This document shows positions 25,305-60,396 of a stretch of 64,000 bases of DNA, in pieces. The notes below the pieces were generated by a model. It had not been told where the DNA came from and did not search any database. It saw nothing but the letters and a program-made list of their open reading frames with translations. Source of the stretch: Alphaproteobacteria bacterium (lineage in GTDB: Bacteria; Pseudomonadota; Alphaproteobacteria; Bin95); the NCBI GenBank assembly GCA_965205265.1, contig CBDBGH010000003.1, positions 608,001-672,000 on the forward strand, written 5' to 3'. Position 1 is the stretch's first letter; every line of letters begins with the position of its first letter. The position numbers were made by a program, and so were the translations under genes.

Positions 25305-25380
25305 GGCCCCTTCGTCTAGCGGTCCAGGACGCCGGCCTCTCACGCCGGAAACACGGGTTCGAGTCCCGTAGGGGTCACCA
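25305..25380 (+). tRNA. tRNA-Glu (CTC)
   Basis: Acceptor stem GGCCCCT/AGGGGTC, anticodon arm CCGGC-CTCTCAC-GCCGG, T-loop GTTCGAG, encoded CCA. Confidence 0.96.
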
Positions 25381-38348: not shown

Positions 38349-38472
38349 GGGCCCGCAGTATAGAGCGGAAACGCCCCCTATGCGCCGTAAATCGAGGCGG
38401 GAGGTTGGACCTTCCGTTGTGGCTTGGAATGAACAATTTCGGATATTTTTGAATTATGTTCCCTGTATGGGC

Positions 38473-38499
38473 TTGACATCTGGCGGATTGTGGTATGAT
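38473..38499 (+). promoter_or_regulatory. Sigma70-like promoter, repeat element copy 1
   Basis: TTGACA-15 nt-TATGAT with extended -10 TG; equivalent motif in copy 2; spacer is short. Confidence 0.55.
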
Positions 38500-38504
38500 G
38501 GTCC

Positions 38505-38730
38505 CCAGGGAAGCGGACTCCGGAGCCGCCTCCCCCGGGTGCCGCGCGGCCGAGCGGCGCCATTTCTGAAAACCCGTGAGAAGCCGACGGGAGACGTGCG
38601 CCCTGTGCCTCGCGCGCGCAATCAGGCGCGCAAACCGCGCCGCCGCGAAACGCGCGCCCGCGCCGACACAGGCGCCCGCGCAGGATACGCGCGGAAAAGG
38701 GACCCGCTCCCCGTCGGAGGAGGAGAGACG
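38505..38730 (+). ncRNA. Putative structured non-coding leader, copy 1
   Basis: Identical 12-22 nt blocks shared with 57481-57705 (-); conserved 5' hairpin GAAGCGG..CCGCYTC. Confidence 0.5.
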
Positions 38731-39318
38731 ATGACCGCAACTGACCCCCGCCCCGCACTGGCGGCGATGCTGGCCGAAAAGCTGGCCCCGGCCGCCGCAG
38801 CCCTTGCCGAAGCTTATGCCCAGGACATGGGCGCAGCGCCGCCGCCGGAGGACAACCGTGCCTCGGCCGAACGCCATCGCGCCGGACGCGCCGCGCTCTC
38901 CCATCTGCGCCAGATCCTCAATGTCCTCGACTGGGCCGCCGCCCGCATGCCCGAGCCGGAGCCGGCAGTCATCGAGGAACCGGCGGACGACTGGGTTCCG
39001 GAGCCGGAGCCCGAGACCGGCTATGACGGCAGCGAGGACGAATACCACTATTTCGACGAGGTCTGGGTCGGCAGCCAGCAGACGCCCGAGTTCCGGGCCT
39101 GGCATGCGGAGCAGGAGCGCCGCTTCGGGCCGCTGGTGCCGGACGAGGACAGTTACGACGGCAGCGAGGACTACTACAATTTCGGCGAGCGCCAGTATGT
39201 GGGCAAGCTGACCACGCCCGCGTTCTACGACTGGCTCGCCCGCCAGGAACGCCGCGAGGCCGCAGAACTCGCCGCAAGGGAGGCCGCAGAAGGAGGCGGG
39301 GGTACCGGCGGGTGGTAG
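38731..39318 (+). CDS. Hypothetical protein with a duplicated YDGSED motif
   Basis: GGAGGAGGAG RBS; host-like GC-rich codons; two repeats YDGSED...T-P-x-F-x-x-W-x-A-x-QERR. Confidence 0.75.
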   Translation: MTATDPRPALAAMLAEKLAPAAAALAEAYAQDMGAAPPPEDNRASAERHRAGRAALSHLRQILNVLDWAAARMPEPEPAVIEEPADDWVPEPEPETGYDGSEDEYHYFDEVWVGSQQTPEFRAWHAEQERRFGPLVPDEDSYDGSEDYYNFGERQYVGKLTTPAFYDWLARQERREAAELAAREAAEGGGGTGGW

Positions 39319-39365
39319 AGCATGCTCCGCTCGGGCTGAAACGAATCCCTCCACAGAGCCCCCAT

Positions 39366-39405
39366 CGTCACCCCGGCCGGAGCGAAGCGGAGAGCCGGGG
39401 TCCAG
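39366..39405. repeat. REP-like hairpin (third family)
   Basis: CGTCACCCCGGCCGGAGCGAAGCGGAGAGCCGGGGTCCAG. Confidence 0.55.
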
Positions 39406-39574
39406 ACTGCCGGGGTCTTTACCGGATTGCGCCGGTCGTGCCGGGCTCCGGCTCGGGGGTCGGAGCGACAATAGGGGCCGTCGCCATAGGTTCCGATCAA
39501 CGACCGTTGGTATCAAAGAGCGGACGGCTTCATGCCCAAATCGGCTACGGCATATGAACTCCGCGCATGCAGAA

Positions 39575-39601
39575 CATGACATCGCATGACATTCCATGAC
39601 A
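39575..39601 (+). repeat. Three CATGACA heptamers at 10-bp period, copy 1
   Basis: CATGACA at 39575, 39585 and 39595. Confidence 0.9.
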
Positions 39602-39747
39602 CATCCCTGGAGTGGGCCCCTGGGGTCGGACAGTCCGGTTGAGGAGATTTGTCGGATGCGCAGGCGTCGGAAGGACTGCGGCCGCGGGGAAGCGCCGGGC
39701 GGTTCCCGGCTCCCGGCCCGGCGGGACCTGCCGCGCGTTTGCCGGGC

Positions 39748-57167: not shown

Positions 57168-57194
57168 TGTCATGGGATGTCATGTTTTGTCATG
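57168..57194 (-). repeat. Three CATGACA heptamers at 10-bp period, copy 2
   Basis: TGTCATG at 57168, 57178 and 57188 on the + strand. Confidence 0.9.
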
Positions 57195-57480
57195 TTTCCC
57201 ATGCATGCGATTTATGTTCCCATGCCAATCCCGGCATAATACCAACCGCGCCGGGCTGCGCCTCATGAGGAATGCCGCCGCCCCCGGGCCTCGTGCCGCG
57301 GGAGGGGGCCGGATCGACGCCAGGGCGCCGTCCGGAACGATGGGAGATGTTCGTCGGTTCCTACTTGCCGTTATTGGCGCGCGCCTCCGTTTCGAGTTAG
57401 GGTTCCGGGTATTCCGCCGGTGTTTGCCGTCTTCATGTTTCGGGCATGGCTCCCTGCTTCCCGCTCCATTGCCGTTCCCG

Positions 57481-57705
57481 TCTCCCCGCCGCTGGCCTGC
57501 CCGGGCAGCGGACCCTGATTCGCGCGTAATGTGCGCGGGCGCCCGCGCCCGCCAGCGCGCGTTTCGCGGCGGCGCGAATCGCGCGCCTGATTGCCCGCGC
57601 GCGCGAGGCCTGAATGCGGGCGCACGTCTCCCGTCCGTTCCAAAGGGGTTATTTTGCGCCGGCGCCGGCGCGGACGGCGAAGCGGTTTCCGGATGCCGCT
57701 TCTAT
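57481..57705 (-). ncRNA. Putative structured non-coding leader, copy 2
   Basis: Reverse-complement homolog of 38505-38730. Confidence 0.5.
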
Positions 57706-57708
57706 CCT

Positions 57709-57736
57709 ATACTATCACAGAATTTTCCATTGTCAA
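57709..57736 (-). promoter_or_regulatory. Sigma70-like promoter, repeat element copy 2
   Basis: TTGACA-16 nt-TAGTAT with extended -10 TG and an AT-rich upstream tract. Confidence 0.6.
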
Positions 57737-57774
57737 ATCATATTGAGAAATATTACTAATTCAGTGAACAAATC

Positions 57775-60396
57775 CTAGCCCAGCCGGGCGAGCGCTCCTT
57801 CGAGCGCTGCGCGCTGGCCGGCGAGCTCGTTGCGCTGCTCCCGCTGGTCCTCGACCACCTCGGCCGGGGCGCGGGTGAGGAACCGGTCATTGCCGAGCTT
57901 CTTGTCGATCCCCGAAATGCGGGCGTCGATCTGCGCCATTTCGCGGTCCAAACGCTCGCGTTCCTTGCCGAAGTCGATCACCTCTGCGAGTTTCAGCGCC
58001 ACCGTTGCGCCGGGCAGCGCCACCTCGACCGAGCCCTCCGGCGCGGCCCCCTCCGACAGGCTTTCCAGCCGCGCCAGCCTGAGTATCTGCGGCGCATTGC
58101 GCGCGGCGCGGTCGGCGCTCTCCCCGTCGGCGCCGACAAGCGCGGCGTCGATCCTGGCGCCCGCCGGGACATTGAGTTCCGACCGCACGCGGCGGATCTC
58201 CGAGATCAACTGGATGGTCCAGCCGATCTCGGCCGGCGGCTCGCCCGCGTCGTCATCGGGCCAGGCCGCGCCGATCAGCCCGCCTTCCACGAGGCCCAGC
58301 GCGTCGTTCAACTCCTCGGTCACGAAGGGCGTCAGCGGGTGCAGCATCCGCAGGACGCGGTCCAGCACCCAGGCGGCCGTCGCGCGGGTCTCGTCCGCCG
58401 CCCGCCCGCCCTCGGCGAAAACCGGCTTGGCGAACTCGATGAACCAGTCGCAGAACTCGCCCCAGACGAAGCGGTAAAGAACGTCCGCCACCTCGTTGAA
58501 GCGGTATGTGTCCATCGCCGCTTCCACCTGTCGGCGCGTCTCGACGGTCCGGGCGACGATCCAGCGGTTCAGCGTTTCCTCGACGGCGGCGGAATCGAAA
58601 CCCGGCCGGGGCGTGCAGCCGTTCATCTCGCAGAAGCGCGCGGCGTTCCAGAGCTTGGTGGTGAAGTTGCGGTAGCCCGCGACCCGGCTTTCGGAGAGCT
58701 TGATGTCGCGGCCGGGCGCGGCGAGCGCGGCCAGGGTGAAGCGCAGCGCGTCGGCCCCGTAGCTCGCGCACATGTCCAGCGGGTCGATGATATTGCCCTT
58801 GGACTTGGACATCTTGGCGCCGTGCTGGTCGCGCACGAGCGCATGGATATAGACGGTGCGGAAGGGCACTTCACCCATGAAATGCAGGCCCATCATCATC
58901 ATCCGGGCGACCCAGAAGAAGATGATGTCGAAGCCCGTCACCAGCACGTCGCCCGGATAGTAGCGGTCGAGCGCGGGCGTCCGCTCCGGCCAGCCGAGCG
59001 TCGAGAACGGCCAGAGCGCGGAAGAGAACCAGGTGTCGAGCACATCCGGGTCCTGCTGCAGTTCCACGCCCGGCCCGAAACGCGCTTCGGCCTCCGCCCT
59101 TGCCTCGGCCTCCGTTTCGGCGACGAAGACCGAATCCCCGGGGCCGTACCAAGCCGGAATCCGGTGCCCCCACCAGAGCTGCCGCGAGATGCACCAGGGC
59201 TGGATATTGCGCATCCACTCGAAATAGGTCTTGGCCCAGTTTTCCGGGACGAAGCGGGTGCGTCCGCTCTCGACCGCCTCGATCGCCGGTTTCGCCAGGG
59301 TCGCGGCGTCGGCATACCACTGCTCCGCCAGGTAGGGCTCGATGGGCACCCCGCCGCGGTCGCCATAGGGGACCGTGTGGCGATGGCGCTCGACGCGCTC
59401 CAGCGCTCCCGCCGCTTCAAGGTCGGCGACCACCCGCTCGCGCGCCGCGAACCGCTCCAGGCCGCGATAGGCCTCCGGCGCCGCGTCGTTCAGATGCGCC
59501 GTCCGGTCGAAGATGTTGACGACATCCAGCCCGTGCCGCCGCCCGACCTCGAAATCGTTGAAGTCGTGCGCCGGGGTGATCTTGACCGCGCCGGAGCCCT
59601 GCTTCGGGTCGGCATGGGCGTCGGCGACGATGGGGAGTCGCCGGTCCACCAGCGGCAGGATGCAATGGCGGCCGACCAGATGCCTGTAGCGCGGGTCGTC
59701 CGGATGGACCGCGACGCCCGTATCGCCCAGCATCGTCTCGGGCCGCGTCGTGGCGACGGTCAGGCTCTCGCCGTCCCCGCCTTCGACGGGATAGCGGATA
59801 TACCAGAGATGGCCGTCGGTCTCGGTCTGCTGCACCTCGAGGTCCGAGATCGCGGTCTCCAGCGCCGGGTCCCAGTTCACCAGCCGCTGGTCCTTGTAGA
59901 TCAGGCCCTCGCGGTATAGCTGCACGAAGACCCTGACGACCGCTTTCGACAGGCCCTCATCCATGGTGAAACGCTCGCGCGCCCAGTCGGCCGATGCGCC
60001 GAGCGAGCGAAGCTGGCGGGTGATCTGCCCACCCGACTCCGCCTTCCACTCCCAGACCCGGTCCAGGAACTTCTCGCGTCCGAGGTCGGTCCGCTTGAGT
60101 CCTTCCTCGTCGAGCTGGCGCTCCACCACCATCTGCGTCGCGATTCCGGCATGGTCGGTGCCGGGCTGCCAGAGCGCGTCCCTGTTCCTCATGCGGTGGT
60201 AGCGGATCAGGATGTCCTGCAGCGTGAAAGTCAGGCCGTGGCCCATATGCAGGCTGCCGGTGACATTCGGCGGCGGCATCATGATCGTGTAGGGCCGGGC
60301 GCCTTGCCTCACGCCCGCGGCAAAGGCGCCGGCGCGCTCCCAGGCGTCATAGCGCGGCGCTTCCACCGCGTCGGAACGGTAGGTCTTCTCCAGCAT
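57775..60396 (-). CDS. valS: Valine--tRNA ligase
   Basis: 'PPPNVTGSLHMGH', 'KMSKS', C-terminal coiled coil. Confidence 0.98.
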   Translation of the reverse strand: MLEKTYRSDAVEAPRYDAWERAGAFAAGVRQGARPYTIMMPPPNVTGSLHMGHGLTFTLQDILIRYHRMRNRDALWQPGTDHAGIATQMVVERQLDEEGLKRTDLGREKFLDRVWEWKAESGGQITRQLRSLGASADWARERFTMDEGLSKAVVRVFVQLYREGLIYKDQRLVNWDPALETAISDLEVQQTETDGHLWYIRYPVEGGDGESLTVATTRPETMLGDTGVAVHPDDPRYRHLVGRHCILPLVDRRLPIVADAHADPKQGSGAVKITPAHDFNDFEVGRRHGLDVVNIFDRTAHLNDAAPEAYRGLERFAARERVVADLEAAGALERVERHRHTVPYGDRGGVPIEPYLAEQWYADAATLAKPAIEAVESGRTRFVPENWAKTYFEWMRNIQPWCISRQLWWGHRIPAWYGPGDSVFVAETEAEARAEAEARFGPGVELQQDPDVLDTWFSSALWPFSTLGWPERTPALDRYYPGDVLVTGFDIIFFWVARMMMMGLHFMGEVPFRTVYIHALVRDQHGAKMSKSKGNIIDPLDMCASYGADALRFTLAALAAPGRDIKLSESRVAGYRNFTTKLWNAARFCEMNGCTPRPGFDSAAVEETLNRWIVARTVETRRQVEAAMDTYRFNEVADVLYRFVWGEFCDWFIEFAKPVFAEGGRAADETRATAAWVLDRVLRMLHPLTPFVTEELNDALGLVEGGLIGAAWPDDDAGEPPAEIGWTIQLISEIRRVRSELNVPAGARIDAALVGADGESADRAARNAPQILRLARLESLSEGAAPEGSVEVALPGATVALKLAEVIDFGKERERLDREMAQIDARISGIDKKLGNDRFLTRAPAEVVEDQREQRNELAGQRAALEGALARLG

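Follow-up and report, generated by a model that had tools for sequence, protein, structure and literature searches.

A putative high-copy intergenic cassette with a conserved leader, a variable gene slot and a phased CATGACA tail in one alphaproteobacterial genus

MITEs (miniature inverted-repeat transposable elements) and the Correia- and ERIC-type (enterobacterial repetitive intergenic consensus) repeats are dispersed, numerous intergenic units with common ends. They occur in cargo-bearing and deleted forms, are present or absent at a given site in related genomes, coincide with rearrangement breakpoints and host nested insertion sequences (IS). The same properties recur in a cassette element of which two copies lie in a 64,000-nucleotide stretch of an uncultured alphaproteobacterium (NCBI GenBank assembly GCA_965205265.1, contig CBDBGH010000003.1, positions 608,001–672,000 of the forward strand), here called the window. 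Unlike the MITE-type repeats, the cassette lacks terminal inverted repeats, a clear target duplication and a recognisable transposase, and it encodes a terminase-like helix-turn-helix (HTH) protein or an acidic protein. It is also much larger (0.45–1.4 kb) and, as judged from its sequence, appears to carry a full promoter, a structured leader of ~230 nt and a translated slot.

Small terminases and their pac sites, as in SPP1/SF6, P22 and the phage-inducible chromosomal islands (PICIs), offer another parallel, namely an N-terminal Terminase_2 domain and helically phased direct repeats beside the gene. The cassette protein, however, is about twice as long as a usual small terminase and has a conserved acidic C-terminal half. 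In contrast to pac phages, the source genome has no large terminase of family PF03237 or PF03354, the units are devoid of integrase, capsid and replication genes, no relative is found in GenBank phages, and a genome holds seven copies of the gene and about 100 arrays. PICI-like satellites are islands of several kilobases with integrase, regulatory and replication genes, whereas a cassette measures 0.44–1.4 kb and has at most one open reading frame (ORF).

A structured non-coding region next to an ORF and the lack of terminal inverted repeats are features shared with IS110 elements and their bridge RNA and with IS200/IS605 elements and their omega-RNA. The cassette differs from both in that the unit contains no DEDD, TnpB or Y1 gene, no search aimed at Y1 (PF01797) having been made, its leader is not complementary to its own flanks and its cargo is unrelated. 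IS200/IS605 elements and palindrome-associated transposable elements (PATEs) have subterminal hairpins at both ends, whereas hairpin P1 of the cassette follows the promoter, ~80 nt in from the left end, and a hairpin in the tail is unsupported. Integron cassettes, too, place interchangeable ORFs between a conserved 5' platform and a conserved 3' site, but the units described here are solitary and dispersed, each with its own promoter-like site; they form no array beside an integrase, and their 3' ends lack an imperfect palindrome of the attC kind. Since each cargo type has its own leader subfamily, whole units seem to have diverged, unlike the shuffled cassettes of integrons.

Riboswitches and other 5' leaders in Rfam resemble the cassette in having a long, conserved GC-rich 5' region with invariant junction-like blocks, variable peripheral hairpins and ORFs downstream. 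The cassette leader, in contrast, has no Rfam match, stands before unrelated or decayed ORFs ~75 times per genome and is confined to one genus. Repetitive extragenic palindromes (REPs) and the bacterial interspersed mosaic elements (BIMEs) built from them are palindromes of 20–40 nt that are often clustered, whereas the cassette is at least 440 bp long, asymmetric and furnished with a promoter and an ORF slot. Finally, for ArtA, a ribbon-helix-helix protein of the Staphylococcus plasmid pSK41, the heptad CATGACA is a demonstrated operator that overlaps −35 boxes and is found in tandem (PMC2777438), so the motif is able to act as a unit of protein binding. The same heptad closes the cassette in tandem, in an unrelated organism and next to a different protein family, so that the likeness is one of analogy only.

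Copy number, distribution and mobility

The source genome (G000; 5.70 Mb in three contigs, 65–68% GC) is 98.98% complete with an estimated contamination of 7.28%, and the window corresponds to positions 608001–672000 of its contig C3. A preliminary description of the window had pointed to two regions with the same ordered parts, copy 1 on the + strand and copy 2 on the − strand. Every feature listed there was found again by exact coordinates: both copies have an AT-rich tract, TTGACA, a TG-extended −10 box, a hairpin, identical GC-rich blocks, a divergent middle, GCATGCA and three CATGACA heptads. The likeness exceeds by far what chance would give. On balance, at slightly better than even chances, we take both regions to be copies of a genus-specific, high-copy intergenic cassette element present about 75 times per genome. 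The cassette family is real, is far larger than two copies and matches no described family tested. Two copies had prompted the idea that an unnamed family of dispersed cassettes exists, each with a promoter, leader, variable cargo and phased end; a set of 76 heads and a genus-wide distribution support it.

A profile of the element was built, after BLAST, from eight compact copies and searched against the source genome. It gave 114 matches that resolve into 76 heads (promoter plus leader), all on contig C3. A profile match to the tail follows 60 of the 76 heads, and at least one same-strand cluster of two or more heptads follows 66. A typical unit is 440–550 bp long, about a dozen units reach 1–1.35 kb, and over the full range of 0.44–1.4 kb a unit contains at most one ORF. 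Compact units that align end to end number 38 (36 distinct). Within C3, two pairs of heads are identical duplicates.

Of the 16 other genomes of the genus, 13 hold the leader in multiple copies. Single marginal matches (E about 1e-4) were obtained in two further genomes of the genus and in four genomes of other genera, and one genome of the genus gave no leader match. A 25-nt pattern of the leader core has 71 matches in the source genome and 3–113 in the 13 positive genomes, an approximately 30-fold difference in copy number among species, with none for the reversed control and none in the same-genus genomes G001, G003 and G013. The heptad pair CATGACA-N3-CATGACA follows the leader: it occurs 103 times in the source genome and 23–319 times in the 13 leader-positive genomes, but 1, 0 and 0 times in the leader-negative G001, G003 and G013, respectively; the reversed control again gave 0.

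When one genome per species was scanned for 185,579 species, at least 95 stretches matched; among the 80 of 95 matches listed, nearly all are in alphaproteobacterial metagenome-assembled genomes (MAGs), and two odd labels could reflect errors of binning. The organisms that carry the cassette are uncultured alphaproteobacteria represented by MAGs only. Parts of the 64-kb stretch are present in sponge and marine metagenome runs. Contigs of one sponge DNA run (85% likeness) reach across the two flanks with identities of about 92% and 90%, which means that a relative is present in that sample.

No entry matching the element was found in the collections searched. At gathering score, Rfam 15 reports only a tRNA in the window, and with a permissive E-value both copies have only chance-level matches, far under gathering scores. 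Blastn against PLSDB plasmids gave no match, and among 2.9 million viral contigs of IMG/VR the leader core has 0 matches. A literature search, with supplementary files outside its scope, returned no description of the cassette. These results, together with tests for the hallmarks of REP and IS elements, which the copies do not display (their target duplication being unclear), bear out the view that the element is not a known riboswitch, REP or IS. Triple heptads occur in ten IMG/VR contigs. One of these (L163, 97 kb) has inverted CATGACA triplets with 10-bp spacing at 617–643 and 1045–1071, around an AT-rich stretch of ~400 bp, in an arrangement that resembles iterons or operators.

Filled and empty versions of two sites, IS elements nested in copies, truncated cargo and rearrangement breakpoints at copies show that the unit is discrete DNA that is, or at least once was, mobile. 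Comparison of orthologous sites, suggested before as a way to define the ends, was informative in two cases. A copy in the related genome G005 with a nested IS3 forms a 2.46-kb insertion whose ends coincide with the AT-rich head and the post-heptad motif; in the source genome both flanks abut, uninterrupted, at C3:3570711. Conversely, the source-genome copy at C3:4185986 lies in a 614-bp insertion, and the site is empty in G007, G010 and G016, where the flanks are ~60 bp apart. The ends at these two junctions differ from one another. In neither window copy are the two ends joined by an inverted repeat (0 of 11 reported pairs), in line with the absence of terminal inverted repeats noted before.

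Other sites are more intricate. The valS–DUF482 spacer, where copy 2 resides, is filled with unrelated AT-rich DNA in a close relative. The same flank may carry different subfamilies in different species, and one site is occupied in four of five relatives, though not by the same subfamily. In G005, G007 and G012 the two sequences that flank copy 1 are found on separate replicons or contigs, four of six other source-genome copies tested have flanks that are separated in at least one relative, and one recombinant between copy 1 and the copy at C3:851256 can be reconstructed. The separated flanks and this recombinant indicate that copies are substrates for homologous recombination. Cargo is 90–100% identical within a genome and at most 76% identical across genomes. 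Since sites are occupied in several species, many of them are old, and gene conversion probably contributes to the likeness of copies within a genome. The cassette is a visible share of intergenic DNA across the genus, marks interspecies rearrangement breakpoints and attracts IS insertions, and in these ways it shapes genome architecture.

Promoter, leader and gene slot

Similarity between copies starts sharply ~45 nt upstream of the −35 box, in the AT-rich tract, and when the 76 heads are aligned on the −35 box the flanks beyond the tract are unrelated. In copy 1 the tract occupies 38429–38472 (+ strand), and the part of the left flank that is orthologous in relatives ends at ~38394. In copy 2 it occupies 57737–57775 (− strand) and begins directly after the valS stop codon. 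The promoter-like site of copy 1 (38473–38499, + strand) consists of TTGACA at 38473–38478, a 15-nt spacer and the TG-extended −10 box TGGTATGAT at 38491–38499, with a predicted start at ~38506. That of copy 2 (57709–57736, − strand) consists of TTGACA at 57736–57731, a 16-nt spacer and a TG-extended TAGTAT box (TGATAGTAT, 57717–57709), with a predicted start at ~57703. Among 74 distinct copies, TTGACA is found in 33, the TG extension in 46 and a spacer of 15–16 nt in 56. Both boxes are present in both copies, but a simple promoter scan calls copy 2 only (10 of 12 positions, with TG).

Use of the element as a promoter of downstream host genes is not supported. Among 58 copies, 29 are convergent with the neighbouring gene, 22 are co-oriented and 7 have no neighbour; this lack of bias indicates that the unit is not simply a promoter for host genes. 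One 135-nt metatranscriptome contig begins exactly at 38506, and we treat this as a coincidence of contig breaks at repeats.

The leader (~230 nt) is made up of hairpin P1, a GC-rich core of invariant blocks and length-variable hairpins, possibly closed in the folding model by a long-range helix, and a last hairpin, P10. In copy 1, P1 is a palindrome at 38508–38534 (+ strand) found by an inverted-repeat scan. The core with candidate helices P3–P10 was delimited at 38575–38711 (+ strand) by aligning the two copies and family variants, and its shared blocks begin at 38586, 38619, 38636, 38671 and 38686. In copy 2, P1 lies at 57679–57702 (− strand), where its coordinates were verified and the hairpin tests across variants apply, and the conserved core through P10, aligned to copy 1, spans 57489–57635 (− strand), with the same blocks ending at 57618, 57581, 57555 and 57532.

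Pairing in the hairpins is kept through compensatory changes, as expected of the structured leader that had been proposed. P1 is retained in 60 distinct variants with a mean z-score of −2.3, and P1 and P10 form, with such changes, in nearly all distinct variants. P1 is more stable on the sense strand in 48 of the 60 variants and has 58 G-U pairs in sense against 23 in antisense. Consensus folding of the whole leader from profile-aligned and MAFFT alignments gave poor structures and was replaced by hairpin-wise tests. A structure was drawn by hand for 23 sequences that come from six genomes; pairing holds in 90.9% of its cells, compared with 33–55% when partners are slid. Changes on both sides of a pair affect 8 pairs and 21 cells; the corresponding values in shuffles are 3.3 and 6.6, and none of 500 shuffles attains the observed ones. 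Judged from these alignments, covariation support for the leader structure seems real but modest, because the core helices never vary and the structure was drawn from the sequences on which it was tested.

Orthologous leaders of the source genome and G005 are 0.87–0.93 identical. This exceeds the identity of the AT tract between the same two genomes (0.74–0.85) and of cargo proteins between genomes (at most 67–76%), so no other part of the unit is as constrained as the leader. Leader identity is about equal to that of the flanks of the same copies, which are mostly coding and 0.91–0.97 identical in six of eight cases. We infer that the leader is transcribed and acts as RNA, either as a cis-regulatory or as an otherwise functional structure. 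Direct repeats of the P10 region after the heptads were seen in only a few copies and were dropped.

The leader is followed by a purine-rich Shine–Dalgarno sequence and a conserved start codon, the slot, the tail module, the heptads and, often, a short G-rich terminal motif. Three classes of cargo occupy the slot: a terminase-like protein in seven copies, a 195-residue acidic protein in nine copies, and short ORFs in the remainder, including copy 2. The terminase-like and acidic proteins share no homology, and neither has a family in NCBIfam or PADLOC. Cargo differs even between orthologous copies, in line with the variable cargo of the earlier description.

Long copies, named earlier as a place to check for a terminase or recombinase gene, do contain a terminase-like gene. 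Its product is 307–330 residues long in the seven copies and has a Terminase_2 domain (PF03592) at residues 11–85 with an E-value of 4e-13; the score of 50.6 bits against a cut-off of 26.1 places this segment in the small-terminase DNA-binding domain family. It further matches the small terminase of PHROG 51 (E 5e-14) and SF6-type DNA-binding domains in the Protein Data Bank (4zc3, 2cmp and 3zqp, E 0.009–0.024). Terminase_2 matches in the whole genome are exactly seven, all inside elements. Conservation extends over most of the protein, its acidic C-terminal half included, and the last residues are nearly always specified by heptad sequence. Close homologues in metagenomes run to the hundreds, often many per contig, and only 52 of 1.84 billion cluster representatives reach an E-value of 1e-30 or better, the long architecture being rare. 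The gene is found in 12 of 16 genomes of the genus, and its distribution follows that of the element except in G008.

Terminase-like genes also occur in a multi-copy arrangement in G033, a genome of another family. It has nine dispersed units of ~1 kb (L142–L150), each with a terminase-like gene for ~280 residues (34% identical), a palindrome of 14 bp where the promoter is presumed to lie and a hairpin downstream; these units have neither the cassette leader nor the heptads. The nine dispersed units mean that the gene behaves as a multi-copy unit elsewhere as well.

The cargo of copy 1 (38716–39318, + strand) is the acidic protein of 195 residues, which contains an internal repeat. Its Shine–Dalgarno sequence lies at 38716–38727, its ATG at 38731 and its TAG at 39316–39318. 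The source genome has nine full copies of this protein, that of copy 1 included, with 90–100% identity; the family is restricted to the one genus, and no Pfam family is above threshold. The slot of copy 2 (57248–57488, − strand) was assigned by alignment, profile scan and ORF check to a compact, decayed type without a long ORF. Short ORFs of this kind begin at the recognisable conserved start, run in different frames in different copies and stop in the heptads. Because the frames differ, the peptides are not conserved, and small ORFs as conserved peptides were ruled out. N- and C-terminal fragments of both cargo proteins are frequent in relatives, a cargo-bearing unit in one species can be orthologous to a compact unit in another, and each cargo type is paired with its own leader subfamily. 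For these reasons the compact copies, which are the majority and include copy 2, are best read from their sequences as internally deleted derivatives that would retain only short, frame-variable ORFs.

The heptad array and competing explanations

The tail of copy 1 starts with a conserved module ahead of the heptads (39523–39574, + strand; profile match 39523–39598), with GCATGCA at 39565–39571. The three CATGACA heptads follow at 39575–39601 (+ strand) with 10-bp spacing (starts 39575, 39585 and 39595), and a terminal motif at 39602–39620 (+ strand) is the same as the one that closes the inserted unit in a relative. Upstream of the module, the GTTGGTAT motif at 39489–39513 (+ strand) is a piece of a longer repeat that is located just upstream of heads in other copies. 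The tail of copy 2, also matched by the profile (57168–57247, − strand), contains GGTTGGTAT, GCATGCA at 57208–57202 and heptads at 57194–57188, 57184–57178 and 57174–57168. The module is conserved at the nucleotide level, without a conserved reading frame.

The source genome holds 737 CATGACA heptads, compared with 292 predicted from base composition. Their spacing peaks at 10 bp (103 pairs), with further peaks at 20 (20), 30–33 (15), 42–43 (26), 52–53 (22) and 62–63 bp (7). This period of ~10.5 bp puts all heptads on one face of the DNA helix. Arrays on one face of the helix are typical of cooperative binding by an oligomeric protein. Codon phase varies among the spacings between clusters, evidence against a role in translation alone. 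A hairpin in the tail was also considered and rejected, pairing being no better than with shuffled partners. The array would be a protein-binding DNA array, and the best candidate ligand appears to be the terminase-like HTH protein, acting in trans on all copies, because the array is at the end of its gene and its distribution matches that of the element except in G008.

In the explanation that we propose, each cassette would be a self-contained unit driven from its AT-rich left end by a sigma-70-type promoter with an extended −10 box. Transcription would yield a structured 5' leader of ~230 nt, followed by a ribosome-binding site, a start codon, the gene slot and the heptads of the right end. 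One intact form would encode the ~310-residue Terminase_2-domain protein, and a second lineage, to which copy 1 would belong, the 195-residue acidic protein. The terminase-like protein would bind the heptad arrays of all copies in trans, in the way a small terminase binds pac or a repressor binds phased operators. The units would have spread as DNA by machinery supplied in trans, and later gene conversion would homogenise the copies within each genome. Promoter firing, the action of the leader as RNA, the heptad-binding protein and mobilisation in trans are the four parts of this explanation that we infer; what is observed is the anatomy of the unit with its discrete ends, its copy numbers and distribution, its presence or absence at a site, decayed cargo, nested IS elements and rearrangements at copies.

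Several observations weigh against this explanation. Most of the 20 copies of G005 examined adjoin flanks that also adjoin a copy in the source genome, and much of the similarity within a genome may stem from gene conversion rather than recent transposition. The two filled and empty junctions have no clear target duplication, although a CCGG/CGGG-rich target could hide a repeat of 2–3 bp, and no recombinase or transposase belonging to the element was found in the units, no search aimed at the Y1, Y2, serine and tyrosine families having been made. At the left end, most promoter spacers (56 of 74, as given above) are shorter than the 17-nt optimum, and copy 1 is missed by the promoter scan because its 15-nt spacer is outside the 16–18 range of the tool. 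The RNA data are contig-level, come from one metatranscriptome run and one possible RNA run, and show no greater depth on the repeat than DNA runs do: contigs pile up on the repeat ~80-fold over the flank in the RNA run and ~140-fold in a DNA run. The whole leader has no sense-strand folding bias (sense is more stable in only 29 of 83), covariation is confined to peripheral hairpins while the invariant core helices are uninformative, and the hand-drawn structure is derived from the sequences used to test it. At the right end, the 10-nt spacing gives each of the three frames a TGA, and the ORFs examined all stop within the array, so heptads may act, at least in part, at the RNA level. Lastly, with the query used, the terminase-like gene was not found in G008, although this genome still has 44 leader cores and 23 heptad pairs, so that the element can persist without the protein.

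An alternative that dispenses with mobility is a host gene family: paralogous genes for small RNAs or small proteins of one regulon, multiplied by duplication and kept alike by gene conversion, that would have in common their promoter, a 5' leader with a regulatory role and, at the 3' end, an operator or processing signal. It fits the many sites that are orthologous between species, a leader conserved as well as the coding flanks, the conserved promoter, ribosome-binding site and start codon, and the absence of a transposase. It sits poorly with the sharp common ends between unrelated flanks, with filled and empty sites and with cargo that is truncated and internally deleted in many copies. 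A regulon gene family would also hardly be missing as a whole from three genomes of the genus, vary ~30-fold in copy number between species or encode short peptides that are not conserved in frame. We consider it unlikely.

The terminase-like protein invites another explanation, in which it would be functional but partnerless and the array would be a pac-like site. A large terminase from a phage or gene-transfer agent would then start headful packaging at ~100 arrays, and the elements would be distributed starters of transduction or anti-phage packaging decoys. In P22- and SPP1-type phages the pac site is located within or next to terS. The N-terminal Terminase_2 DNA-binding domain and the position of the array at the 3' end of the terminase-like gene agree with such a role, and heptads in helical phase over ~63 bp would suit wrapping of DNA around a ring-shaped oligomer. 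PF03237 and PF03354, the two large-terminase families searched, have 0 matches each in the source genome, so any large-terminase partner would come from outside. The query used did not recover the gene from G008, and heptad pairs are fewer relative to leaders there (23 to 44) than in any other genome, although this correlation is a single data point. On the other hand, tblastn against 50,697 GenBank phage records found no relative of the protein, and the leader core is absent from the IMG/VR contigs. Packaging also leaves unexplained the spread within genomes, the strong promoter and the conserved leader, and the lineage with the 195-residue cargo has the same tail without the terminase-like gene. 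As a full account of the cassette, a packaging-site network is quite unlikely.

The stops in the array, listed above among the difficulties, are the starting point of a third alternative. Three CAUGACA repeats 10 nt apart give UGA overlapped by AUG in all frames, so that translation would end there, could restart, and could be coupled to termination, decay or a downstream structure. In accord with this, every ORF examined stops in the array although the ORFs arrive in different frames, the Shine–Dalgarno sequence and start codon are conserved where the peptide is not, and the spacing within clusters is exactly 10 in 103 pairs. The spacings between clusters (30–33, 42–43, 52–53 and 62–63), however, follow the helical repeat and not the codon phase, the seven conserved bases exceed what an AUGA overlap needs, and clusters of two heptads, which do not cover three frames, are common. 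An RNA-level tail as the explanation of the array is improbable.

An RNA-guided or RNA-mediated element of the IS110 bridge-RNA, IS200/605 omega-RNA or retroelement kind, in which the leader RNA sets the target or is an intermediate, would explain an RNA-like non-coding leader upstream of an ORF without terminal inverted repeats or a clear target duplication, but it is highly improbable, as the leader matches its own flanks no better than those of other copies (longest exact match, e.g. 7.8 vs 7.7 nt, on which count the guide-RNA idea was discarded), the unit has no DEDD, TnpB or reverse transcriptase gene (the lone IS110 sits, in opposite orientation, within a single one of the 76 copies), a retro-copy would lose the promoter, which lies inside the unit upstream of the predicted start, and Rfam has no match.

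Returning to the mobile cassette, its combination of a full promoter, a long structured leader that is better conserved than the cargo, a translated slot with content that can be exchanged or lost and a one-faced array of protein-binding heptads would, if the parts work as we propose, be absent from any described bacterial repeat. It would add a candidate to the classes of structured RNA, one for which covariation analysis could draw on thousands of natural variants, and it would be a case of a phage small-terminase domain that lives in many copies without a phage. There is a slim prospect that it is a new class of mobile cassette in which a terminase-derived protein assembles on the right-end heptads and the ~230-nt leader RNA controls the process or takes part in it. 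The ~100 arrays would then form a pac-like entry network that turns phage motors, absent from the host, into carriers of host DNA or diverts them as a defence; whether dispersed pac-like arrays organise DNA transfer or phage interference would be a tractable test.

Nested and neighbouring repeats

The transposases inside copies (rve, IS110 and a ~500-residue ORF of a ~2.8-kb IS) belong to nested IS elements that are also found elsewhere in the genome. The IS110-family transposase gene is at C3:2141200–2143600 (L155). The ~2.8-kb IS has 46 BLAST hits and at least 24 copies of ~2.8 kb, with a 500-residue ORF that has no Pfam match at E 1e-3. Copies are found at C3:2709750–2712543, 691601–694392, 2356012–2358804 and 3851475–3854264. 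At least four copies are located inside a cassette or no more than ~50 bp from its tail, so the IS may prefer the cassette tail as a target. A gene for a P4-type tyrosine integrase lies ~1.3 kb downstream of a truncated head (C3:2544150–2547200, L152) and may mark an island integrated at the element.

The sequence after the tail of copy 1 (39602–39660), together with the start of the downstream gene, is conserved beside another copy in the source genome (C3:4633190–4633260) as well as beside a compact copy of G005 (L096:1500–1600). From this recurrence, at least one host gene family travels with the tail or recombines at it.

A nested REP-like GC hairpin in copy 1 (39367–39403, + strand) matches other loci of the genome and represents a separate repeat family, members of which fill other spacers, e.g. 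C3:1359000–1359780. In the sponge DNA run, depth has a spike on this hairpin (39367–39403), and a hairpin resembling the repeat flanks the terminase-like units of G033. A second repeat family has a unit of ~250 bp, of which 12 copies are nearly full, and a ~100-bp core that occurs 61 times (C3:4009079–4009330 and at least 11 other places, e.g. 980250, 1205674, 2926064 and 3619388); its members often lie directly against one or the other end of the cassette. The intergenic repeats of the source genome form mosaics.

Segments 202–646 and 42553–43194 of C3 are exact duplicates of 4632769–4633213 and 5413545–5414186, respectively. No cassette copies lie at C3 4.63–5.41 Mb, where another IS-like repeat is concentrated in more than a dozen copies of ~1.6 kb, and the assembly may include duplicated or foreign stretches. 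In the window itself, the sole tRNA, which is also the sole Rfam match, is a tRNA-Glu (CTC) at 25305–25380.

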